The notes below the pieces were generated by a model. It was given only the letters and a program-made list of their open reading frames with translations, was not told the DNA's origin and did not search any database. Positions 4,501 to 53,602 of a stretch of 64,000 nucleotides of DNA are shown in pieces (positions within the stretch are counted from its first letter, which is position 1; the number at the start of each line of letters is the position of its first letter). Source of the stretch: Mustelus asterias (taxonomy: Eukaryota); assembly GCF_964213995.1 (NCBI RefSeq), contig NW_027590536.1:186001-250000 (forward strand), in the 5' to 3' direction. The translations under genes were made by a program, and so were the position numbers.

Positions 4501-4536
4501 TCTGTTCATGACTGGTAGCTAATAAATAGCTACCAG

Positions 4537-6677
4537 ATGGGGCAGATGTTTGAGGGCAAATCAACATCTGGCGTGTGGGAGGCTTTCAAGTGTAAGTTGA
4601 TAGGGATTCAGGACCAGCACATTCCTGTAAGGGTGAAGGATAAGTATGGCAAGTTTTGGGAACCTTGGATAATGAGAGATATTGTGAGCCTCGTCAAAGA
4701 GAAAAACGAAACATTTGTCAAAGCTAGGAGGCTGGGAACACATGAAGCAAGTGTGGAATACAAGGAAAGTAGAAAGAAACTTAAGCAAGGAGTAAGGCGG
4801 GCTAAAAGGGGTCACGAAAAAGCATTGGCCAGCAGGATTAAGGAAAATCCCAAGGCTTTTTATACATATATAAAGAGCAAGAGGGTAGCCAGGGAGAGGG
4901 TTGGCCCACTCAAGGACAAGGGAGGGAATCTATGCGCGGAGCCAGAGGAAATGGGCGAGGTATTAAATGAGTACTTTGCGTCAGTATTCACCAAAGAAAA
5001 GGACTTGGTGGATGATGAGTCTGAGAAAGGATGTGCAGATAGTTTGAGTCATGTTGAGATCAAAAAGGAGGAGGTATTGGGGTTCGTGAGAAACATTAAG
5101 GTAGACAAGTCCCGAGGGCCTGATGGGATTTACCCCAGAATACTGAGGGAGGCAAGGGAGGAAATTGCTGGGGCCTTGAGAGAAATATTTGTATCCTTAC
5201 TGGCGACAGGGGAGGTCCCAGAGGATTGGAGAATAGCCAATGTTGTTCCTTTGTTTAAGAAGGGTAGCAAGAATAATCCAGGTAATTACCGGCCGGTGAG
5301 CCTTACATCAGTAATAGGGAAATTATTGGAGAGGATTCTTCGAGACAGGATTTATTCCCACTTGGAAATAAGTGGACGTATTAGTGAGAGGCAACATGGT
5401 TTTGTGAAGGGGAGGTCGTGTCTCACGAACTTGGTCGAGTTTTTCGAGGAAGTGACGAAGATGATTGATGAGGGTAGGGCAGTGGATGTTGTCTACATGG
5501 ACTTCAGTAAGGCCTTTGACAAGGTCCTTCATGGCAGACTGATGCACAAGGTGAAGTCGCATGGGATCAGAGGTGAGCTGGCAAGGTGGATACAAAACTG
5601 GCTCGGTCAAAGAAGACAGAGGGTATCAGTGGAAGAATGCATTTCTGAATGGAGGGCTGTGACAAGTGGCATTCCCCAGGGATCAGTGCTGGGATCTTTG
5701 CTGTTTGTAATATGCACAAATGATTTGGAGGAAAATGTAACTGGTTTGATTAGTAAGTTTGCGGGCGACACAAAGGTTGGAGGATTTGCGGATAGCGATG
5801 AGGACCAGCAGAGGATACAGCAGGATATAGATCGGTTGGAGACTTGGGCGGAGAGATGGCAGATGGAGTTTAATCCAGACAAATGTGAGGTAATGCATTT
5901 TGGAAGGTCTCATACAGATAGGAAATATACAGTAAATGGCAGAACCCTTATGAGTATTGATAGGCAAAGGGATCTGGGTGTACAGGTACACAGGTCACTG
6001 AAGGTGGCAATGCAGGTGGAGAAGGTCGTCAAGAAGGCATACAGCATGCTTGCCTTTATCGGCCAGTGCACTGAGTTTAAAAATTGGCAAGTCATGTTGC
6101 AGCTTTATAGAACCTTAGTTAGGCCGCACTTGAAACATAGTGTTCAATTCTGGTCGCCACGCTACCAGAAAGAGGTGGAGGCTTTGGAGAGGGTACAGAA
6201 AAGATTTACCAGGATGTTGCCTGGTATGGAGGGCATTAGCTATGAGGAGAGGTTGGAGAAACTTGGTTTGTTCTCACTGGAGCGACGGAGATTGAGGGGC
6301 GGCCTGATAGAAGTCTACAAGATTATGAGAGGCATGGACAGAGTGGATAGTCAGAAGCCTTTTCCCAGGGTGGAAGAGTCAATTACTGGGGGGCACAGGT
6401 TTAAGGTGCGAGGCGCAAGGTTTAAAGGAGATGTACAAGGCAGATTTTTTACACAGAGTAGTGGGTGCCTGGAACGCGTTGCTGGGGGAGGTAGTGGAAG
6501 CGATACGGTAGTGACTTTTAAGGGGCATCGTGACAAATACATGAATAGGATGGGAATAGAGGGATATGGTCCCCGGAAGGGTAGGGGGTTTTCGTTAAGT
6601 CAGGCAGCATGGTCGGTGCAGGCTTGGAGGGCCGAAGGGCCTGTTCCTGTGCTGTAATTTTCTTTGTTCTTTGTTCT
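4537..6677 (+). mobile_element. CR1-clade LINE, 5'-truncated, with a 706-aa open RT frame
   Basis: ORF 4537..6657 carries [31 protein letters not shown] and FAGD (for FADD) motifs; TTCTTTG-repeat tail. Confidence 0.95.
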
Positions 6678-8433: not shown

Positions 8434-9960
8434 TTAAAGGATCTCTCCTGGGTGTGAGGGACATTGTGCATCAGCAGCTGGGGTATCGAGAGAATCCTTC
8501 CGCACACACAGAGCAGGTGAATGGTCTCTCCCAGTGTGAACCCGCTGGTGTCTCCTCAGTGTGCATGCCCTTCCAAACCTCTTTGTGCAGTGAGAGCAGC
8601 TGAACGGTCTCTCCCCAGTGTGAATGCGCTGGTGATCTATCAGATGCTCAGAAATTTTGAAGCCACTCCCACAGTCGGAGCATTTAAAGGGTCTTTCCTG
8701 GGAGTGAGTGACTTTGTGTCTCTGCAGGCTGGATAACCGAGTGAATCTGTTCCCACACTCGGAGCAGGTGAACGGTCTCTCCCCGCTGTGAACTTGCTGG
8801 TGAGTCAGCAGGGTGGATGACTGAGTGAATCCCTTCCCACACTCGGTGCAGGTAAATGGTCTCTCCTCGGTGTGAAGACGCTGGTGTGTCAGCAGGGTGA
8901 ATGACTGACTGAATCCCTTCCCACACACAGAGCAGATGAATGGTCTCTCCCTGGTGTGAACTCGCTGGTGTCTCTGCAGTGTGGATGACCTCTTAAACCT
9001 CTTTGTGCAGAGAGAGCAGCTGAACGGTCTGTCCTCAGTGTGAATGCGCTGGTGGGACACCAGTTCCCCAGAAATTTTGAATTCGCTCCCACAGTCCGAG
9101 CATTTAAAGGGCCTCTCACTGGTGTGAGTGACTTTATGACTCAGCAGGTTGGGTAAATTAGTGAATCCCTTCCCACACACAGAGCAGGTGAAAGGCCTCT
9201 CTCCGGTGTGAACTCGCTGGTGTGTCAGCAGGGCGGATAACTGTGTGAATCCCTTCCCACAGTCAGAGCAAGTGAATGGTCTCTCCCCGGAGTGAACTCG
9301 CTGGTGGTTCCGCAGGTTTGATGATGATCTAAATCTCATTGTGCAGAGAGAGCAGCTGAACGGTCTGTCCTCAGTGTGAATGCGCTGGTGGGACATCAGA
9401 TCCCGAGGACTTTTGAAGCAACTCTCACAGTCAGAGCATTTAAAGGGTCTCTCATTGGTGTGAGTGACTTTGTGCGTCAGCAGGGCGGATGACCGAAAGA
9501 ATCCCTTCCCACACACATTGCAGGTGAACGGTCTCTCCCCAGTGTGAATCCGTTGGTGTGCCCGCAGTTCGGAGGACCGAGAGAATCCCTTCCCACACAT
9601 GGAGCAGCTGAACGGTCTCTCCCCGGTGTGAACCCGCTGATGTCTCCGCAGTGTGGATGACCATTTAAATTTCATTGTGCAGTGAGAGCAGCTGAACGGT
9701 CTCTCCTCAGTGTGAATGCGCTGGTGGGACCCCAGTTCTCCAGAGCTTTTGAATCCGCTCCCACAGTCAGAGCATTTAAAGGGTCTCTCATTGGTGTGAG
9801 TGAGATTGTGACTCAGCAGGTGGGAGAACTTAATGTATCCCTTCCCACAGACTGAGCAAGTGAAGGGTCTCTCCCGAGTGTGACTGCGTTGATGAATTTC
9901 CAAATCACAGGGCAACATGAATCCTTGTCCACAATCGTCACATTTCCACAGTTTCTCCAT
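8434..9960 (-). CDS. C2H2 ZNF protein, 508 aa, 17 fingers (gene A)
   Basis: MEKLWKC start and 17 CX2CX12HX3H fingers with TGERPF-type linkers. Frameshift after finger 17; decayed fingers run to the ancestral HK-stop near 8300. Confidence 0.93.
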   Translation of the reverse strand: MEKLWKCDDCGQGFMLPCDLEIHQRSHTRERPFTCSVCGKGYIKFSHLLSHNLTHTNERPFKCSDCGSGFKSSGELGSHQRIHTEERPFSCSHCTMKFKWSSTLRRHQRVHTGERPFSCSMCGKGFSRSSELRAHQRIHTGERPFTCNVCGKGFFRSSALLTHKVTHTNERPFKCSDCESCFKSPRDLMSHQRIHTEDRPFSCSLCTMRFRSSSNLRNHQRVHSGERPFTCSDCGKGFTQLSALLTHQRVHTGERPFTCSVCGKGFTNLPNLLSHKVTHTSERPFKCSDCGSEFKISGELVSHQRIHTEDRPFSCSLCTKRFKRSSTLQRHQRVHTRERPFICSVCGKGFSQSFTLLTHQRLHTEERPFTCTECGKGFTQSSTLLTHQQVHSGERPFTCSECGNRFTRLSSLQRHKVTHSQERPFKCSDCGSGFKISEHLIDHQRIHTGERPFSCSHCTKRFGRACTLRRHQRVHTGRDHSPALCVRKDSLDTPAADAQCPSHPGEIL

Positions 9961-10998
9961 GATGCGGGTGTCCTTGTGACTCTCCAGGTTTGATGATCAG
10001 TTGAATCCTTGTCCACACAGAACACGTGTACGATCTCTCTTCACTGTAAACGGTGCAAAAGCTCTTCCCACTATCAGTGGACTGGAACACTCTCACTCGG
10101 GTGTGTTCCAGTCACACTGATGTTTAAAATCTCCTGAAGCAAACAGATCAGACAAACATTGCTTTTCTAGATTCAAAGGTCAATGATATTCAGGTCCCAA
10201 TAAATCGAATGACTCTGTCAAATCTTAATGTGATGTTTAGTTTGAAATTTCTGTCTGTAAGTTCTCACCTCCTGATATCTATGAAAGGAATTTACAACAG
10301 ACATCACTGTCAGTACAAGATAGAAATTCAGAACAGACAATTCTAGTTTCTATGGAACATTCTTTCCTCTCTCATTCCCCAAAAGCTGTCAATCGTCATC
10401 CCACACACTCTCCCTCAATTCTCACTCTGCTCTCCTGAGTATACAACCTCCCAAGTCTATTGAAGGTGCTGATTCAGGCTGATTAACGGATCCATGCTGA
10501 CCACTTTCTATATTGGACACAGAGATCTGAAAACCTACGTGTAACGTCCGGCCTACGTGCTAGAAATTAAAATCTGTGCCATATGTGGGACTGGATAACT
10601 GGATTGGGAGAAGGAGAAGGATGTGGGGAAGAATTTTATTTTGGTGCAGAAAGGTCATTACCTGGAAGCCGCTGCCTCAGGGGGTTGTGGAAGTGCAAAT
10701 GATCCATGATTAATCTTCAAGCTGACAGCCACGTTAAAGTTTTACATTTGGCCATAAATGAGCAGACTGATGCTGTGTGTAATGCACTGTATTACCTGGT
10801 TACAGATACATGAAGAATGTGAGGAGGATTTTTATTTCGGCAGCGAGTGGTGACCTGGAAGTTAAAAATTCAACAAGTCCCCAATTTCCCCCAGAATGCA
10901 AAAGAAACGCAAAAGGGGAGAAAAGAAAGTGTTTTACTCACAGATGTTGGCCTCTTTTTGGTCAAAAGGAGCTCACAAACTATTTTTCAAATTGACAT

Positions 10999-11071
10999 CG
11001 AGCCAGCCAGGAGTCGAACCTGGAATCTTCTGATCCATAGTCAGACGCGTTATCCATTGCGCCACTGACCC
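10999..11071 (-). tRNA. tRNA-Arg(ACG)-derived copy with anticodon mutated to ATG (probable retropseudogene)
   Basis: GGGTCAGTGGCGCAATGGATAACGCGTCTGACTATGGATCAGAAGATTCCAGGTTCGACTCCTGGCTGGCTCG matches vertebrate tRNA-Arg-ACG except C4T and C35T. Confidence 0.92.
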
Positions 11072-11099
11072 ACACTCTCACAGATGGTGCCGACAGGAG

Positions 11100-11430
11100 G
11101 AAGGTTGAGTCTGTCTGAAGCTCAATCTCCATTCAGAGAGAGAAGCAGCAGCAGCAGCTTCGCTCGGCAGGAATGAGCAGCTGAACAAGCTCATTGTGCA
11201 ACTTCCGCATTCAGACCATGGGGGAGCTCTGATTGGCTGGAGGAGCAGAGAACTTCCGGTCCTCCAGAGTTCCCATTGGTCAGCACGTTAGAATGTTCGC
11301 GGTGGGGGGGGGGGGGGAGAGGTCCCCACCGCACATGCGCAGCTTCCCCTCTCCCTTGGACATGCGCAGCCCCAGGCCTTTGGGGAGTGGACAGATTCAA
11401 TCTCCCTCTTGTCCTCAGCATTCCTCCTGT
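11100..11430. promoter_or_regulatory. Bidirectional promoter between ZNF genes A (-) and B (+)
   Basis: Two ATTGG (CCAAT) boxes, ETS-like ACTTCCGG and two CATGCGCA NRF1-like motifs. Homologous to 20940-21130. Flanked on both sides by outward-facing ATCT|GTGAGT donors. Confidence 0.7.
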
Positions 11431-11526
11431 GGGATAGTAACTGTTGGACTGCTTTTGTTAAACTCGTTCTGTGATTTTAAAGGGTTCAGTAGTGCAATGG
11501 ACACAGTTAAACAGTCCTTAAAAGAG
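11431..11526 (+). mobile_element. 96-bp insertion ending TAAAAGAG in inferred exon 1 of gene B (possible Tx1 3' UTR fragment)
   Basis: Interrupts TTCCTCCTGT...GCCAGCATCTGTGAG and is absent from the paralogous sites. Confidence 0.5.
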
Positions 11527-11562
11527 GCCAGCATCTGTGAGTAAAACACTTTCTTTTCTCCC

Positions 11563-12252: not shown

Positions 12253-12610
12253 GATATGAGAAGGTGAGGATTGACAGACCAAAATCTTGAAACAAACATC
12301 ACATCAGCATTTGACACCCTCACTCAATTCATCGGACCTGAATATTATCAGCCTTTGAATCTAGAAGGAGAAATGTTTCTCTGTTCTGTCTGCGTCAACC
12401 GGCCTTTAATATCAATGTGACTGGAAAAGTACCAAGGCGCAGATACACCCGAGTGACAGTGTTCCACTGCACTGAGTGTGGAAAGAGCTTTAACCAGTTA
12501 CACAGCCTAAAAATACATCGCAGCATTCACAACGGGGAGAGACTGTACCCACGTTCTGTGTGAGATTTAACTGACTGTTTAACCTGGAGAGTCACAAGGA
12601 CACCCGCACC

Positions 12611-13984
12611 ATGGAGAAACCGTGGAAATGTGGGGACTGTGGGAAGAGATACAGAGCCCCCTGTGACCTGGAAATCCATCGACGCAGTCACACCGGAGAG
12701 AGGCCATTTACCTGCTCTGTGTGTGGGAAGGGATACATTCAGTTATCCCACCTGCTCAGACACAAAGTCACTCACAGCAATGAGAGACCCTTTAAATGCT
12801 CTGACTGTGGAAGCAACTTCAAACGTGCTGCGGATCTGAGAGAGCACGAGCGCATTCACACTGAGGAGAGACCGTTCAGCTGCTCTCTCTGCACAATGAC
12901 ATTTCGAAGGTCATCCAACCTGCGGCAACACCAGCGAGTTCACACTGGGGACAGACCGTTCACCTGCTCTGTGTGTGGGAAGGGATTCACTCAATTATCC
13001 AGCCTGATGAAACACAAAGTCACTCACACCCAGGAGAGACCCTTTAAATGCTCTGACTGTGGGAGAGGCTTCAAAAGCTCTGGTGAACTGATGTCCCACA
13101 AACGCTTTCACACTGCAGAGGGACTGTTCACCTGCTGTGTGTGTGGGAAGGGATTCAATCGGTCACCCCACCTGCAGACACACCAGCGAGTTCATACTGG
13201 GGAGAGGCCGTTCACCTGCCCTGTGTGTGGGAAGGGATTCACTCAGTCATCCCACTTACAGAATCACAAAGTCACTCACAGCAATGAGAGACCCTTTAAA
13301 TGCTCTGACTGTGGGAGCGGCTTCAAAAGTGCTGCGGATCTGAATATCCACCAGCGCATTCACACCGAGGAGAGACCGTTCAGCTGCTCTCACTGCACAA
13401 AGAGGTTCAAAACCTCATCCAATCTGCGGGTACACCAGCGAGTTCACACTGGGAAGAGGCCATTCACTTGCTCTGTGTGTGGGAAGGGATTCACTCAGAC
13501 ATCTGGTCTGACAACACACAAAGTCACTCACAGCAATGAGAGACCTTTTAAATGCCCTGACTGTGGGCGTGTCTTCAAAAGTGCTGCGGATCTGATGATT
13601 CACCAGCGCATTCACACCGAGGAGAGACCCTTCAGCTGCTCTCACTGCACAAAGAGATTTAAAAGTTCATCCAATCTGCGGAAACACCAGCGAGTTCACA
13701 CTGGGGAGAAACCATTCCCCTGCTGTGTGTGTGGGAAAGGATTCACTCAGTTGTCCAGCCTGCTGAAGCACAAAAGCACTCACACCCAGGAGAGAGCCTT
13801 TCAATGCACTGACTGTGGGACTGGTTTTGAAAGCTCTCATGAACTGTTGATTCACCAGCGAGTTCACACTGAGGAGAGACCATTCCCCTGCTCTGTGTGT
13901 GGAAAGGGATTCACTCAGTCATCCAGCTTGCTGAGACACAATGTTACTCACAGCAAGGAGAGACCCTTTAAATGCTCTGACTGA
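12611..13984 (+). CDS. C2H2 ZNF protein, 457 aa, 16 fingers (gene B)
   Basis: ACCATGG start and 16 complete fingers. Ends at a Cys-position TGA in finger 17; degenerate fingers continue to an HK-stop at 14516. Confidence 0.93.
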   Translation: MEKPWKCGDCGKRYRAPCDLEIHRRSHTGERPFTCSVCGKGYIQLSHLLRHKVTHSNERPFKCSDCGSNFKRAADLREHERIHTEERPFSCSLCTMTFRRSSNLRQHQRVHTGDRPFTCSVCGKGFTQLSSLMKHKVTHTQERPFKCSDCGRGFKSSGELMSHKRFHTAEGLFTCCVCGKGFNRSPHLQTHQRVHTGERPFTCPVCGKGFTQSSHLQNHKVTHSNERPFKCSDCGSGFKSAADLNIHQRIHTEERPFSCSHCTKRFKTSSNLRVHQRVHTGKRPFTCSVCGKGFTQTSGLTTHKVTHSNERPFKCPDCGRVFKSAADLMIHQRIHTEERPFSCSHCTKRFKSSSNLRKHQRVHTGEKPFPCCVCGKGFTQLSSLLKHKSTHTQERAFQCTDCGTGFESSHELLIHQRVHTEERPFPCSVCGKGFTQSSSLLRHNVTHSKERPFKCSD

Positions 13985-20855: not shown

Positions 20856-20939
20856 AATTTGAAGTTCCCAATTTACCCAGAATGAGAAAAGAAATGGAAA
20901 GAATGAGAAAATAAAGTGTTTTACTCACAGATACTGGAG

Positions 20940-21410
20940 GAAGTTTCAGTCTGTCTGAAGCTCAATCTTCATTCACATAAAGCCCTCTGATTGGCTGGAG
21001 GACCAGGGTCCTTCCGGTCCTCCAACTCTTCCCATTGGTCAACACGTCAGCAAGAAGGCCAGGAGGTTAGGCGCACCCCGCACATGCGCAGTTGCTCCTC
21101 TCCTTTGGACATGCGCAGTCCTGGGCCTGTGGGAGGGGGAGATCACCGAGCGGCTTCTCGCTCTGGCCGGAGCCGTCAGCCGGTTGGCTGGAAAGCTTGG
21201 CTCGATGTGGTTTAGGGGGAGGGGAACAATGGGTGGGGGCGGGGCTCCCGGGTCCGCGCGCCCGGGCCTGCGCACTGGAACCCGGAGACGTCACCGCGGA
21301 GCGCAGTGATTCCTATTGGTTGATTCAGGCAAAGCTCCATTGTGACATCACAATGCGGAAGTTGTCCAATGAGCTTCAGAGTGAAACTCCCTCCTCTGGA
21401 CAACATCTGG
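20940..21410. promoter_or_regulatory. CpG-rich bidirectional promoter between ZNF genes C (-) and D (+)
   Basis: CpG-rich, with CCAAT boxes, CTTCCGG and CATGCGCA motifs; paralogous to 11100-11430. Confidence 0.72.
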
Positions 21411-22153
21411 GAGGAAATCAATGTTTCCCCCTTTCCATTTCTTTTCTCATTCTGGGGGAAATTGGAGACTTGCAGCAACTGAAGGGAAAGGAAGTGAATC
21501 CAGTCTGTATATTCCACACATTTTTAGCCCAGTAATTTAGACATCTGTCTGGCAGCCTGCATGGAGATTTTCAGCTCTCTGTGTCTAGGACAGGAAGCAG
21601 TGAGCATGGATCTGTCAATCAGCCTCAATCAGCACCTTCAGGAGAATTGGGAGGGTGAATATTAGATACAGCAGAGTGAGAATGGAGGGAGAGTGTGTGG
21701 GATGGAGATTTACAGCTTTTGGGCAATGAGAGGGGAAAGAATGTTCCATAGAAACTGGAATTGGCTGTTCTGAATTTCTAACCTGTGCTGACAGTGATGA
21801 ATTTTGTAAATTCTTTTTGCAGCATATGAGAAGGTGAGGATTTACAGGCAGAAATCTCAAACTAAACGTCACTCTATTCATTGGGACCTGAATGCTATTG
21901 GCCTTTGAATCTAGAAGGAGAAATGTTTCTCTGTCCTGTCTGCTTCAGAAGGTTTTGAACATCAGTGTGACTGGACAGACACACACACACCTGACTGAGA
22001 GTGTTCCAGTGCACAGACTGAAGAAAGAGCTTTAACCAGTGACACAACTGAAAAAAGCATCTCAACATTCTCAGCAGGGAGAACATCATTCCTGTGTTCT
22101 GTGTCAGACTTAATTGATGGTCTAACGTGGGGAGTCACAAGGACACCCGCACC

Positions 22154-26474: not shown

Positions 26475-26813
26475 TCATAGAAACCCTACAGTGCAGAAGG
26501 AGGCCATTCGGCCCATCGAGTCTGCACCGACCGCAATCCCACCCAGGCCCTACCCCCACATATTTTTACCCGCTAATCCCTCTAACCTACGCATCCCAGG
26601 ACTCTAAGGGGCAATTTTTTTTTTTAACCTGGCCAATCAACCTAGCCCGCACATCTTTGGACTGTGGGAGGAAACCGGAGCACCCGGGGGAAACCCACAC
26701 AGACACGAGGAGAATGTGCAAACTCCACACAGACAGTGACCCGAGCCAGGAATCGAACCCGGGACCCTGGAGCTGTGAAGCAGCAGTGCTAACCACTGCG
26801 CTACCGTGCCACC
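26475..26813 (-). mobile_element. HE1-like V-SINE
   Basis: Full head, V-domain and tail. Confidence 0.9.
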
Positions 26814-26923
26814 CAGATGGTCTCTTTCTGGTGTGGCTGTGCTGCTGTCAATAGGATAACTGACCACTTACATTCCAGAACTGACTGAGTCAGCACTGCC
26901 CTATTTCCAAGACCAACATTGAG

Positions 26924-36809: not shown

Positions 36810-38404
36810 CACGGGCGCGAGTTCACGTCATAAACCAGCTGGTCACCTCCATGCTGTGGTACCGGCTGGTCCCTTTGACCCCTCCCCCTGGCTTTGTCAC
36901 CGATATCCAGAGAACCCTCGTGCGGTTCTTCTGGGGCAATCGACTGCACTGGGTCCCTGCTGCAGTTTTGCATCTCCCGCTTGAGGAGGGTGGACAAGGT
37001 CTGGTGTGCCTCCGCACTCAGATAGCGACCTTCCGCCTCCAGGCCCTGCAGAGGTACCTTTACGTTGAGCCCCCTCCACAGTGGTGTGCCATGGCGACGT
37101 ATTTCTTCTGCCAGTGGCACGGCCTCAATTATGACGTGCAGCTCCTGCATATCGAACTGGGGCGTGTTCCGACCACCCTGCAGGAGTTGCCCGTCTTTTA
37201 CCAGGACCTCCTCACTGTCTGGAACACGGTCGCCTCGCGACGCAGCTCTCCCCCGTCAGGAGTAGCGGCTCTCGTGACTTCAGGTGGCTGGCGGAGAGGA
37301 GGGCTGTGGACGCCGGGGTGACCAGAATCGGGGACGTGCTCGATGTCGGAGGAGCGGGCTGGATGAGTCCCCGCGTGCTGGCTGAGCGCGCAGGGACGAC
37401 CGTCTGGCGCGCGGCCAAAGCCATCCTAGACCTTAGGACGGTCGTGCTCGGCCCCGAAACTGCACGCAAACTCGAGACGGCGCAGGCATGCGGTGGGATC
37501 CCACCCGAGCGTTCCCCTGTTCGGGCAGAATTCCACATTGGCCCAAAGCCTCAGCCCCCCCCCCCCCCCTGGGTGAGGTGCCCCACAGCCTGAGCCGCCT
37601 CGCGGAAATGTCCTCCGTGCCTTTTTCTACCGCACGGAGGCGTTTCCTGTGCGGGCTGCTGCTGCACACCCTCCACTACCGCCTCCTCGCCTGTCGCCCG
37701 GGTACACCATGGCGGGCCTTGTTGCTGCCGGGTGGCGGAGGTCCCCGCTGGAGGTCCCTCTACGGAGGGATCTCCCCCACTTACGTCTGGGACCTGGGGT
37801 GGAGGGTGATGAATGCAGCAGTTCCGCACAACCGTAGGATTCACTGGTTCACGGGCTCCGAAGACTGCCCTTTCTGCGGCCTTGTGGAGTCCGTGGACCA
37901 TGTCTATGTTGTGTGTCTTAGGCTGCACTCCCTTTATGTTTTCCTAAAGAACCTTTTATTGATGTTTCGTTTGCACTTCAGTCCCATGCTCCTGATCTAC
38001 GCACACCCAGTGCGGAGAGGGGAGGGTCGGGATGGCGACCTCCTCGTGAACCTGCTCCTGGGCCTGGCGAAACGCGCCATTTACCGGTCCAGGCAGCCGG
38101 CGATCGAGGGGGCCGTCCATTCTGACTGTCTCCCCCTCTACCGCGGCTACGTTCGCGGCCAGGTGTCCCTGGAGAGGGAGCATGCGGTGTTCACGGGCGC
38201 GGTTGACGCCTTCCGCGCCCGCTGGGCACCGCAGGGGTTGGGGTGCATTATTGACCCTAATAATCACATTATGATTTGATGTTTTTAAGTTTCCTTTGTA
38301 CTTTGATTTCTGTTCGGGCTGTTCCCCCTCCTTTTTGGGAGCTGCCCCTTTTACTTTGTCCTGATTTAATCTGAGTTTGTTTATTTTGTTTGACCGAAAA
38401 AGAG
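36810..38404 (+). mobile_element. L1-Tx1 clade LINE, 5'-truncated ORF2 C-terminus plus 3' UTR
   Basis: RARVHVINQL, LPLEEGGQGL and the CCHC knuckle CPFCGLVESVDHVYVVC in frameshifted ORFs; T-rich 3' UTR ending TTTGACCGAAAAAGAG. Confidence 0.9.
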
Positions 38405-39173
38405 GGCAACATCTGGGAGAAAATCAATGTTTCCCCCTTTCCATTTCTTTTCTCATTCTGGGGGAAATTGGGGACTTGCAGCAACTGAAGGGAAAGGAAG
38501 TGAATTCGGTCTGTATATTCCACACATTTTTCCTCCAGTAATGTAGACATTTATCTGTCTGGCCGCCTGCATGGAAATTTTCAGCTCTCTGTGTCCAGGA
38601 CAGGAAGCAGTGAGCATGGATCTGTCAATCAGCCTCAAGCAGCACCTTCAGGAGAATTGGGAGGGTGAATATTAGATACAGCAGAGTGAGAATGGAGGGA
38701 GAATGTGTGGGATGGAGATTTACAGCTTTTGGGGAATGAGAGAGGAAAGAATGCTCCATAGAAACTTGAATTGTCTGTTCTGAATTTCTATCCTGTGCTG
38801 ACACTGATGACTTTTGTAAATTCCTTTAGCAGGATATCAGAAGGTGAAAATTTAAAGACGAATATCAAACCAAACTTCACATCAAAATCTAACATAGTCA
38901 CTCAGTTCATTGGGACCTGAATATCATCGACATTTGAATCTAGAATGGAAATGTTTCTCTGCTCTGTCTGCTTCAGGAGATTTTAAACATCAGTGTGACT
39001 GGAAAAGCACCGAGACACACACACACTGAAACGTGCACACACCTCAGTGATTGTGGAAAGAACTTTAACCAGTTAAACAGCCTGAAAATACATTGCAGCA
39101 GAGAGACTGCACCCATGTTATGTTGTAACTGAACTGATTGTCAAGCCTGGAGAGTCGCAAGGACACCTGCACC

Positions 39174-42907: not shown

Positions 42908-44670
42908 GATATGATCTAAGGAGATCCATCAAAGATGCCAAAAGACAATACCGGACCAAGCTAGAGTCCCAGGCTCGCCACACCAATCCCCGCTGACTAT
43001 GGCAAGGTCTGCAAGACATAACAGGCTACAAGATGAAGGCATGTAAAATCGCCGGCTCCAACGCTCCTCGCCCTGATGAGCTCAATGCATTCGTTTTGAG
43101 CAAGAGGTCAGCGAGAGCATGCCCTCCACCCTGGAAGCCCTGGATGAACCTGTATCTGGGGTCTCCATTGCAGATGTCAGAGCAGCTTTCTTGAAGGTCA
43201 ACCCACAGAAAGCAACGGGCCCGGATGGGATACCCGGACGGGCACTCAGATCCTGCGCGGATCAGCTGATGGGGGTATTCACAGACATCTTCAACCTCTC
43301 TTTACAACAATCTGAGGTCCCTATCTGCTTCAAGAAGACTACCTTCATCCTGGTACCGAAGCAAAACCAAGCAGCGTGCCTTAATGACTATCGGCCGGTG
43401 GCTCTGATATTCATCATTATGAAGTGCTTCGAAAGGTCAGTCATGGCACAAATCAATTCCAGCCTCCCGGACTATCTGGATCCACTACAGTTTGCCTACC
43501 GCCGCAACAGGTCCACAGCAGACACCATTTCCCTGGCCCTGTACTCAACCCTGCAACACGTAGATTACAAGGACACCAATGTCAGACTCCTATTTGTTGA
43601 CTACAGCTCAGCCTTCAACACTCTTCTTCCCATGAAACTCATCTCCAAACTCCGTGGCCTGGGTCTCGGCACCTCCCTCTGCAACTGGATCCTGAACTTC
43701 CTAACTCACAGACCACAATCAGTAAGGATAGTCAACAACACCTCCTCCACGATCGTCCTCAACACCGGTGCCCCACAAGGCTGTGTTCTCAGCCCCCTAT
43801 TATACTCTTATACACCTATGACTGTGCGGCAAAATTCCCCTCCAATTCGATTTTCAAGTTTGCTGACGACACCCCAGTACTGGGTCGGATTTCAAACAAT
43901 GATGAGACAGAGTACAGGAATGAGACAGAGAACCTGGTGAACTGGTGTGGCAACAATAATCCCTCCCTCAATGTCAACAAAACAAAGGAGATTGTCATCG
44001 ACTTCAGGAAGCGTAAAGAAGAACATGCCCATGTCGACATCAATGGGGACGAAGTAGAAAGCGTCAAGAGCTTCAGGTTTTTAGGTGTCCGGATCACCAA
44101 CAACCTGTCCTGGTCCCCCCATGTTGACACTATAGTTAAGAAAGCTCACCAACGCCCCTACTTTCTCAGAAGACTAAGGAAATTTGGCATGTCAGCTACG
44201 ACTCTCACCAACTTTTACAGATGCACCATAGAAAGCATTCTTTCTGGTTGTATCACAGCTTGGTATGGCTCCTGCTCTGCCCAAGACCGCAAGGATCTAC
44301 AAAAGGTCGTGAATGTGCCCAATCTATCACACAAACCAGCCTCCCGCCGCGTCGGCAAAGCAGCCGGCATAATTAAGGACCCCACGCACCCCGGACATTC
44401 TCTCTTCTACCTTCTTCCTTTAGGAAAAAGATACAAAAGTCTGAGGTCACGTACCAACCGACTTGAGAACAGCTTCTTCTCTGCTGCTGCCAGACTTTTG
44501 AATGGACTTAACTTGCATTAAGTTGATCTTTCTCTACATCCTAGCTGTGACTGTAACACTACATTCTGCACTCTCTCCTTTCCTTCTCTATGAACGGTAT
44601 GTTTTGTCTGTATAGCGAGCAAGAAACAATACTTTTCACTGTATGATAATACATGTGACAATAATAAATT
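42908..44670 (+). mobile_element. Rex1/Babar LINE, 5'-truncated
   Basis: KATGPDGIPG, NDYRPVAL, DYSSAFNT and [10 protein letters not shown] motifs; 3' end ATGTGACAATAATAAAT. Confidence 0.93.
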
Positions 44671-44674
44671 ATTA

Positions 44675-45567
44675 TTGGAGGACGCGGAAAGTCTGCAGAG
44701 AGATTTGGATAGGCTGAGCGAGTGGGCGAGGATCTGGCAGATGGAATAGACATTGGCAAATGTGAGGTTATCCACTTTGGAAGAAATAATAGTAAATTGG
44801 AATATTATTTAAATGGAGAAAAATTACATCGTGCGACTGTGCAGAGGGACCTGGGGGTCCTTGTGCACGAATCGCAAAAACTCAGTCTGCAGCTACAGCA
44901 GGTGATCAAGGTGGTGAGTGGAATGTTGGCCTTTATCGCGAGGGGGATAGAATATAAAAGCAGGGAGGTCTTGATACAACTATACAAGGCATTGGTGAGG
45001 CCGCAACTGGAGTACTGTGTGCAGTTTTGGTCCCCTTGTTTGCGAAAGGATATATTGGCCTTGGAGGGAGTGCAGAGAAGGTGCACCAGGTTGATACCAG
45101 AGATTAGGGGTGTAGCTTATGAGGAGAGATTGATCAGATTGGGTCTGTACTCGTTGGAGTTTAGAAGGCTGAGGGGTGATCTTCTCGAGACATATAAGAT
45201 AATGAAGGGGCTGGATAGGGTACAGGTAGAGGTAGAGACATTCTTACCACTTAGAAGGGAAACCAGAACTAGAGGGCACAGCCTCAAAATAAGTGGGGGC
45301 CGGTTCAGAACAGAGTTGAGGGGGAACTTCTTCTCTCAGAGGGTAGTGAATCTCTGGAATTCTCTGCCCATTGAAGTGGTGGAGGCTTCCTCGTTGAATA
45401 TGTTTAAATCATGGGGTAGATACATTTCTGATTGGTAAGGGAATTAAGGGATATGGGGAGCAGGCGGGTAAGTGGAACTGATTCGCTTCAGATCAGGCAT
45501 GGTCTTGTTGAATGGCGGGGCAGGCTCGAGGGGCTAGATGGCCTACTCCTGCTCCTATTTATGTTCT
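44675..45567 (+). mobile_element. CR1 LINE 3' fragment
   Basis: KCEVIHFG and LYKALVRPQLEYCVQFWSP motifs. Confidence 0.9.
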
Positions 45568-52145: not shown

Positions 52146-53602
52146 AAGCAACAAAGAAAATTACAGCACAGGAATAGGCGCCTCAGCCCTCCAAGCCTGC
52201 ACCGACCATGTTGCCTCACTGAACTAAAACCCCCTACCCTTCTGGGGGTCATATCCCTCTCTTCCCATCCTATTCATGTATTTGTCCAGATGCCCCTTAA
52301 AAGTCACTATCATATCTGCTTCCACTATCTCCCCTGGCAGCGAGTTCCAGGCACCCACCACCCTCTGAGTAAAAGAACTTGCCTCGTACATCTCCTTTAA
52401 ACCTTGCCCCTCGCACCTTAAACCTATGCTCCCGAGTAATTTGACTCTTCCACCCTGGGAAACTAACTATCCACTCTGTCAATGCCCCTACTAATCTTGT
52501 AGACTTCTATCAGATCGCCCCTCAACCTCTGTCTTTCCAGTGAGAACAAACCAAGTTTCTCCAACCTCTCCTCATAGCTAATGCCCTCCATACCAGGCAA
52601 CATCCTGGTAAATCTTTTCTGTACCCTCTCCAAAGCTGCCACATCTTTCTGGTAGCGTGGCGACCAGAATTGAACACTAGATTTCAAGTGCGGTGTAACT
52701 AAGGTTCTATAAAGCTGCAACATGACTTGCCAATTTTTAAACTCAACACCCCAGCCGATGAAGGCAAGCATGCCCTGTGCCTTCTTGACTACTTTCTCCA
52801 CCTGCATTGCCACTTTCAGTGACCTGTGTACCTGTACACCCAGATCCCTCTGCCTAGCAATACTCTTACGGTTTCTGCCATTTATTGTATATTTCCTGTC
52901 TTTATTAGACCTTCCAAAATGCATTACCTCACATTTGTCCAGATTAAACTCCACCTGCCATCTCTCTGCCCAAGTCTCCAACCGATGTATATCCTGCTGT
53001 ATCCCCTGATGGTCCTCATCACTATCCGCAATTCCACCAACCTTTGTGTCGACCGCAAACTTATCAAACCAGTTACATTTTCCTCCAAATCATTGATATA
53101 TATTACAAACAGCAAAGGTCCCAGCACTGATCCCTGAGGAACGCCACTGGTCACAGCCCTCCATTCAGAAACGCACTCTTCCACTGCTACCCTCTGTCTT
53201 CTTTGACCAAGCCAGTTTTGTATCCATCTTGCCAGCTCACCTCTGATCCCATGCGACTTCACCTTCTGCACAAGTCTGCCATGAGGGACCTTGTCAAAGG
53301 CCTTACTGAAGTCCATGTGGACAACATCCACTGCCCTACCCTCATCAACCATCTTCGTCACTTCCTCCAAAAACTCGATCAAGTTAGTGAGACATGACCT
53401 CCCCTTCACAAAACCATGTTGCCTCTCACTAATACATCCACTTATTTCCAAGTGGGAGTAAATCCTGTCTCGAAGAATACTGCCCAATAATTTCCCTATC
53501 ACTGAAGCAAGGCTCACTGGCCTGTAATTACCTGATTATTCTTGCTACCCTTCTTAGACAAAGGAACAACATTGGCTATTCTCCAATCCTCTGGGACCTC
53601 CC
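52146..53602 (-). mobile_element. CR1 LINE, same subfamily as 4537-6677
   Basis: Closely similar RT peptides ([18 protein letters not shown]). Confidence 0.93.

Follow-up and report, generated by a model that had tools for sequence, protein, structure and literature searches.

In the 64,000-nucleotide stretch of Mustelus asterias DNA that we analyzed as a whole (the window), a tRNA-like sequence lies on the minus strand between the two copies of a short direct repeat (10937 to 11090), and the question raised by this locus is how a tRNA came to be inserted in the first exon of a zinc-finger (ZNF) gene, joined to what appears to be the end of a LINE, and how it has spread from there. The original prediction regarded the locus as a single retrocopy, in which an unprocessed pre-tRNA had been reverse transcribed together with the 3' end of a Tx1 element, and proposed that it might represent the birth of a target-specific SINE.

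Read on the minus strand, the insert presents the upstream copy of a target site duplication (TSD; 11077 to 11090), the 5-nt pre-tRNA leader AGTGT (11072 to 11076), a 73-nt tRNA-Arg-ACG body without CCA (10999 to 11071), a 31-nt 3' trailer (10968 to 10998), a 17-nt segment that matches the terminus of Tx1 and contains a T4 run (10951 to 10967), and the downstream copy of the TSD (10937 to 10950), which confirmed the predicted order of the parts. The leaders of most sister tRNA-Arg-ACG genes end in TGT or CGT, the trailer is homologous to those of the sister genes of the L065 type, and of the flank upstream of the tRNA, the insert includes no more than 5 nt. The downstream copy of the TSD contains the 5' splice donor of ZNF exon 1 (GTGAGT, 10941 to 10936, minus strand), as predicted from the sequence of this site. 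The C2H2 zinc-finger ORF of the host gene (8434 to 9996, minus strand) is located downstream of the intron, and the host gene forms a head-to-head pair with a partner ZNF gene, whose C2H2 zinc-finger ORF lies at positions 12575 to 13984 of the plus strand.

The tRNA body (11071 to 10999) matched RF00005 in Rfam with 58.7 bits (E value of 4e-10) and with both the D and T arms covered; by this full-length match, it possesses the internal Pol III promoter of a tRNA-derived SINE. The anticodon reads ATG in the window, and ARAGORN calls a tRNA-His; since 44 of the 55 sibling copies read ACG, tRNA-Arg-ACG with CpG decay is the right identity, in agreement with the original prediction. The decayed anticodon, together with a tRNA body that is no more conserved than its flanks over 55 copies (0.23 derived alleles per site, compared to 0.13 in the trailer and 0.15 to 0.26 in the intron), speaks against a functional tRNA-Arg-ACG gene. 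An ordinary tRNA gene residing in the ZNF cluster, with a coincidental likeness to a Tx1 end, could be thought of in view of the true tRNA-Arg-ACG genes present on the same contigs; however, the empty orthologous sites differ from the filled ones by exactly the 126-bp insert and one 14-mer, by which this explanation is refuted, and it is further opposed by the 17-nt match to the Tx1 end, by the missing upstream flank, and by the lack of any excess of conservation, so that we assign practically no weight to it.

The two TSD copies of the window insert match at 12 of 14 positions. A TSD of 15 bp (13/15) had been proposed, but all seven empty paralogous sites (L082 to L086, L090, and L091) present a T, not a G, ahead of CCAACA, CCGACA, or CCAATA, and ...AAAAGAGG is likewise the end of the Tx1 insertions located elsewhere in this ZNF exon. 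It follows that the TSD is 14 bp long and that the junction G belongs to Tx1, being the final base of its tail. Within the window, an empty target site occurs in a paralogous ZNF exon 1 (21400 to 21413, plus strand), and an empty target-like site occurs in an opposite-facing ZNF exon 1 (20924 to 20937, minus strand).

The tail of the insert had been compared to the end of the window's Tx1 copy (38389 to 38404). Its nature as a Tx1 end was upheld, but the best match is a sister subfamily ending TTTTGACCTAAAAGAGG, which agrees with the chimera consensus at all 17 nt, the chimera copy in the window differing by one substitution. The same 17-nt end was observed in L110 and L111 and in 16 of the first 100 of 325 tail-plus-target matches, and the resemblance of the insert to a Tx1 end is not due to chance.

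The Tx1 copy of the window (36813 to 38405, plus strand) is 5' truncated, retaining ORF2 from about residue 806 to residue 1304 and the 3' UTR, with 93% DNA identity to the full-length element of locus L092 (93 to 94% by tblastn), and is followed by a copy of the target (38406 to 38419, plus strand). Full-length Tx1 elements with a 1304-aa ORF2, comprising endonuclease (EN) and reverse transcriptase (RT), were found in the same ZNF exon at four loci. In particular, the element of L092 (874 to 7954) is apparently intact, with an open ORF1 frame of 1002 aa and an open frame of 1304 aa, in which Pfam recognized Exo_endo_phos and RVT_1, i.e., an APE-type endonuclease and an RT; it is associated with a duplication of approximately 26 bp and occupies, farther upstream in this exon, a second site, where more Tx1 insertions were found. 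ORF2 shares 48% identity with the ORF2 of Xenopus Tx1L (99% cover; 1329 bits) and scored 272 bits against human L1 ORF2p, and it is therefore closer to Tx1, an assignment made by pairwise ORF2 and Pfam comparison. The pattern composed of tail plus target occurs 325 times in the 3.68 Gb of genome searched, compared to 0 times in the reversed control, this search being conditioned on the target and the count thus not giving the share of all Tx1 ends that lie there; Tx1 ends and stubs were found in several other exon and intron contexts as well. Judging from these sequence comparisons, the putative driver is a Tx1-clade LINE that targets the first exons of C2H2-ZNF genes. The target, the TSD, and the tail thus support the central claim of the original prediction, namely, an unprocessed pre-tRNA joined to the 3' end of Tx1 in an insertion made by Tx1.

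Two further observations concern the LINEs of these loci. A second element family, ending in ...AAAAGAAA, was observed at the same 14-bp target in L100, L101, L107, and L113, often in tandem with Tx1 stubs. In addition, the window contains other LINE RT remnants recognized by Pfam RVT_1 (4519 to 6657, 43080 to 45438, and 52924 to 53535), all of which are distant, the first two sharing about 23% identity with the Tx1 ORF2.

The exact parent of the pre-tRNA, having the trailer together with its own flanks, was not found by four pattern searches and one DNA search, which yielded a family of sister genes with a homologous trailer and without the Tx1 tail. Three matches on large contigs (L054 to L056) were rejected as chance matches, no tRNA being present there, and four further candidate loci contained no tRNA 3' end. 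The tRNA-Arg-ACG family is multicopy (L065 to L081 and L116 to L135) and shares its contigs with the ZNF clusters; 40 of its 77 candidates were scored, and many of the tRNA bodies are decayed. At the position of the T4 run of the chimera, the sister genes read CCA-TTT or similar: among the 21 readable trailers of other Arg-ACG loci, none has TTTT after CC, and 20 have an A. The L065-type sisters contain an earlier run of four to five Ts, which is broken in the chimera. Since the Tx1 subfamily ending TTTTGACCTAAAAGAGG includes T4, the run is fully explained by the Tx1 end, and it may be Tx1's own rather than the terminator of the parent. Thus, as regards the bounds of a primary Pol III transcript, which had been claimed for the copied RNA, the leader and the absence of CCA were borne out, whereas the end at TTTT was not established.

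The locus is not the single retrocopy initially envisaged. At least 62 copies of the Arg chimera share the ZNF flanks, namely, 55 copies of the main group, L050, 5 divergent copies on the partner side of L082 to L086, and L053, some of the copies on small contigs being possible haplotype duplicates; the partner-side copy of L085, which contains an inserted repeat, and L053, which lies at a contig end, were left out of the alignments. All 55 main copies have the same junction positions and the same TSD length, and none is 5' truncated. Exact junctions between trailer and tail are located at the one orthologous ZNF exon-1 site in 56 of 56 cases, with no indication of multiple independent insertions and with no Tx1-mobilized copy of the Arg unit at a new target among the 56; junctions with 1 mismatch were matched twice, at control level (11). 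Furthermore, the flanks of most siblings match those of the window over 0.8 to 3 kb at 90 to 99% identity, 55 of the 62 intron-subfamily matches are filled, and the indels of the element go with intron clades (L057 to L059; the L034 group). The shared junctions and the kilobases of shared flank therefore point to one insertion that was spread by DNA duplication and conversion, and not to a SINE; this one insertion was likely multiplied about sixty times along with the host gene. An identity extending beyond leader and trailer had been put forward in advance as the mark of duplication at the DNA level, and it is found here for the window copy, which is therefore not an independent insertion; the ancestral origin by retrotransposition is unaffected.

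On the whole, we think it probable that a pre-tRNA chimera was made by Tx1, most likely by a template jump, and was then amplified through duplication of the host gene. The Tx1 endonuclease would cut the exon-1 target, where the RT would be primed, and the RT would start on its own RNA and then jump to the pre-tRNA-Arg-ACG. The Arg insert would have originated once, in a ZNF gene, at the splice donor predicted for its first exon, and the at least 62 copies would have arisen as the host gene was duplicated at the DNA level and underwent gene conversion.

The birth of a SINE, as originally stated, was not supported, and the more general possibility of a young target-specific SINE, with one or more master copies retrotransposed repeatedly by Tx1 into many ZNF paralogs, appears highly unlikely to us. 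The number of copies, the internal Pol III promoter, and the Tx1 tail would agree with it, and SINEU, mobilized by Tx1-Mar, provides a precedent (PMC4494074). However, besides the 0 of 56 junctions at a new target, the two TSD copies are unequal in 36 of the 55 main-group copies (perfect in the other 19), and the occupancy of 55 of 62 falls within one intron subfamily, whereas Tx1 ends and stubs span other contexts. Moreover, the author of the SINEU study, Kojima, relied on 5'-truncated copies to exclude hitchhiking (PMC4494074); by this test, the Arg unit fails as a SINE, because none of the 55 main ZNF copies is 5' truncated.

Phylogenetic evidence for a single origin is weak, with a star-like intron tree and no rejection of the hypothesis that the empty sites form one clade (p-AU of 0.44). 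That these sites may not be an outgroup is a point that the SINE explanation can count in its favor. In the Mantel comparison, r ranged from 0.34 to 0.50, driven by four divergent copies; once these were removed, what had seemed firm support for clonal duplication had to be downgraded. For the 55 main copies considered by themselves, the element correlates with the intron at an r of 0.11 (P = 0.08) and with the 5' flank at an r of 0.25 (P = 0.006), and the 5' flank correlates with the intron at an r of 0.00 (P = 0.48). Such weak correlations between segments fit heavy recombination and are no proof of a single origin.

In the main group, 10 derived alleles were counted in the upstream TSD copy versus 1 in the downstream copy (binomial P = 0.012), an asymmetry that is not predicted by plain duplication. 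It is explained most simply by conversion from empty exons, and L052 is such a mosaic: the variants of its exon and upstream TSD are those of the empty L082/L084/L086 type, its intron groups with L015 (99/77), and the crossover therefore falls within the final 11 bp of the TSD. It is also possible to hypothesize a homing-like conversion, in which the Tx1 endonuclease would cut empty ZNF targets and repair would copy the insert from a filled paralog; the asymmetry, the features of L052, and the high occupancy (55/62) would all be in line with it. We nonetheless judge this unlikely, as L052 is one mosaic and not a pattern, and as the exon side is generally more variable, with 0.36 to 0.49 derived alleles per site beside the TSD, so that ordinary conversion may suffice.

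L050 was considered as an independent insertion and rejected, since its element and upstream TSD bear the variants of the L034 group. The sequence past its downstream TSD occurs nowhere else in the genome and resembles the post-target sequence of L108, which suggests that something was inserted or rearranged here later; the next 5 kb downstream showed no Tx1 ORF2.

As for the way in which the amplified chimera was formed, the first 100 of the 325 tail-plus-target matches were classified by hand, and they comprise 67 Tx1 ends, 9 stubs, 14 Arg chimeras, 7 copies of an RNA-like insert, 2 tRNA-Gly chimeras, and 1 SINE fragment. The stubs (L101 to L107, L112, and L113) are Tx1 insertions of only 9 to 16 nt; 7 of them have 14-bp duplications, some of which are imperfect, 1 has a duplication of about 7 bp, and 1 has none. 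Because these stubs carry the same 14-bp duplications, the TSD of the chimera can be tied to the Tx1 enzyme. Furthermore, the stub lengths show that synthesis frequently ends after as many nucleotides as make up a chimera tail. It can be supposed that disengagement of the RT causes the short stubs: after about 9 to 17 nt, the RT would often leave its template and either finish, giving a stub, or resume on a nearby small RNA.

Other captured RNAs are fused to Tx1 tails of 10 to 13 nt. In the window, exon 1 of the partner ZNF gene contains a 5'-truncated SNORA41 retrocopy (11415 to 11514, plus strand), followed by one T and the 12-nt Tx1 tail CCTTAAAAGAGG (11515 to 11527, plus strand) and, 3' of the chimera, by a copy of the target (11528 to 11541, plus strand), with no upstream TSD. 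Its parent is L136 (G000:C25), which scored 83 bits against RF00403 and has no LINE tail; the identity to it stops at 11514, just before the tail, and the stop that the original prediction had looked for at this place in a tRNA is thus provided by a snoRNA. The retrocopy has 25 matches in the genome, the parent included. Since SNORA41 is an H/ACA snoRNA, the capture of RNAs is not limited to Pol III RNAs.

A tRNA-Gly-GCC chimera is present in the partner exons of other paralogs (L010 to L053) and in L100, where about 110 nt of upstream sequence, outside the bounds of a Pol III transcript, precede the tRNA; the RNA-side T run is kept, the tail is 13 nt long, and the TSD is 6 to 7 bp, a subgroup of these chimeras lacking the T run ahead of the tail. 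Locus L063 (C11) contains a 5'-truncated pre-tRNA-Arg with a near-identical trailer, a different tail, and its own TSD of 10 to 12 bp, and no ZNF sequence was found in 9 kb; it is a second, independent pre-tRNA-Arg chimera, on another chromosome. The suggestion that further Pol III RNAs would bear the same tail was therefore fruitful with respect to tRNA-Gly and to the second pre-tRNA-Arg, while SNORA41 falls outside this class.

Among the remaining inserts, the RNA-like one occupies about 150 bp before the Tx1 tail in L098, L099, and L115; box C/D-like words were noticed by eye near its ends, and Rfam returned no credible match. In L097 (G000:C9), a SINE fragment sits on a Tx1 tail with a complex duplicated junction, which falls inside the SINE. 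In addition, a 28S rRNA-like fragment (Rfam, 39.9 bits; E value of 2.5e-06) was detected in the ZNF locus L113 (756 to 884).

Template switching and RNA ligation, both of which have been proposed for U6/L1 chimeras (PMC11838501), give the same DNA product. In the case of ligation, a 3'-trimmed pre-tRNA would be joined to a short Tx1 3' fragment by an RtcB-type reaction, and the chimeric RNA would then be reverse transcribed, with which the sense orientation, the near full length of the RNA, and the SNORA41 copy ending near the snoRNA 3' end agree. We are doubtful about this route, however, since a fragment of 10 to 17 nt would need to remain bound to ORF2p, and since both the partnerless stubs of the same length (9 of the first 100 of 325) and the junction of L097 inside the SINE are simpler to explain by RT disengagement.

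Some copies located elsewhere bear on the fate of the Arg unit after the template jump that we favor. L062 (C7) extends from about position +1 of the tRNA through 18 nt of trailer and interrupts a CR1-like repeat, in which about 5 bp are deleted; it agrees with six ZNF copies at 91 of 91 positions, and its variant at position 4 occurs in 28 of the 55 main-group ZNF copies and in none of 29 other Arg-ACG loci. L031 (C7) extends from the leader as far as T4 and is joined to a CR1-like 3' part, and L036 keeps letters of the upstream TSD and three bases of the tail, with a broken T4, a fused SINE, and a possible 6-bp TSD. From their structure, L062, L031, and L036 have the appearance of daughters that derive from RNA and owe their position to other elements; since there are three such copies elsewhere, the ZNF-embedded copies were likely transcribed, presumably by Pol III, and would have been re-copied by those elements. 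These signs of transcription would also be expected of a SINE. The daughters are single cases, and an unassembled parent could be the source of L062 and L031.

The Pol III transcripts of the ZNF-embedded copies would stop at T4, which sits ahead of the last 13 nt of the tail, and the resulting RNA, missing most of the tail, would not be picked up again by Tx1. The loss of most of the tail through termination at T4 is a likely reason why the Arg unit did not become a Tx1-dependent SINE. L096/L139 (G000:C13) comprises a tRNA-Gly derivative, the Tx1 tail, the target, and a T run of the intron; at a site outside the ZNF genes, it is joined to a SINE, and it looks like the copy of a read-through Pol III transcript. 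A bolder proposal would be that the ZNF first exons act as a nursery for Tx1-dependent SINEs: RT aborting at about 10 to 17 nt would repeatedly tag cellular small RNAs with the Tx1 terminus at a single site, the duplication of the host genes would multiply them, and copies without a terminator, structured like L096, would give Pol III RNAs with Tx1 tail and target, some of which would be re-mobilized by Tx1 or spread between paralogs through endonuclease-driven homing. We put this forward very tentatively and would not expect it to be correct.

The proposed template jump on Tx1 can be compared with known systems. U6 chimeras have been reported for the L1, L2, and RTE clades (PMC4476161). The arrangement described here resembles that of U6/L1, with a sense small RNA 5' of the LINE 3' end, one TSD around both, and the cleavage site of the LINE: RNA and tail have the same orientation and are enclosed in one TSD of 14 bp, as in 7 of the 9 Tx1 stubs. 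Different from U6/L1, the driver is a target-specific Tx1, and the LINE part is only 10 to 17 nt long. The 21 human tRNA/L1 chimeras described in PMC11838501 are mostly antisense tRNA halves, whereas here a whole unprocessed sense pre-tRNA was captured and later amplified by host-gene duplication. The tailless pre-tRNA retropseudogenes made by L1, which are primed directly on the small RNA (Schmitz et al. 2004, cited in PMC4476161), are similar in that an unprocessed pre-tRNA was retrocopied with precursor sequence; the window insert differs from them in carrying a LINE terminus, and L062 resembles them.

The SINEU families of crocodilians have U1/U2 heads, poly(A) tails, and a Mariner transposon as target, with hundreds to thousands of copies per family, including 5'-truncated independent insertions (PMC4494074). 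Headed by a small RNA, for the addition of which template switching has been invoked, and concentrated at a Tx1 target in a multicopy sequence, they are comparable to the Arg unit, which, however, shows no independent Tx1-driven insertion and has the exon of a host gene as its target. The driver resembles Tx1L, Keno, Kibi, and Koshi (PMC4494074) in its EN and RT ORF2 of about 1300 aa and probably in a strict preference for a repeated sequence, but its target is exon 1, with the predicted splice donor, of an expanded C2H2-ZNF family. Background on stringent tails can be found in PMC3747384. The literature search, to which Repbase and most subscription papers were outside the scope, returned no paper describing a Tx1 that targets ZNF exons or a chimera of Tx1 and tRNA.

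These observations would extend the formation of LINE/small-RNA chimeras to a target-specific Tx1, and a single family of loci displays what may be intermediates in the origin of SINEs by template switch, namely, short stubs, fusions to RNAs of several classes, probable transcription, and a terminator that has been lost. They also call for caution, as about 60 near-identical copies of a tRNA plus tail mimic young SINEs or tRNA genes and can be hitchhikers of gene duplication. By inserting at the splice donor predicted for this expanded family of ZNF genes, Tx1 would alter their 5' UTRs again and again. With its intact ORF2 and its target of 14 bp, the system lends itself to an in vitro test of the switching step.

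Elsewhere in the window, ARAGORN made a tRNA-like call without a valid anticodon (26738 to 26818, minus strand), which is probably the head of a SINE.
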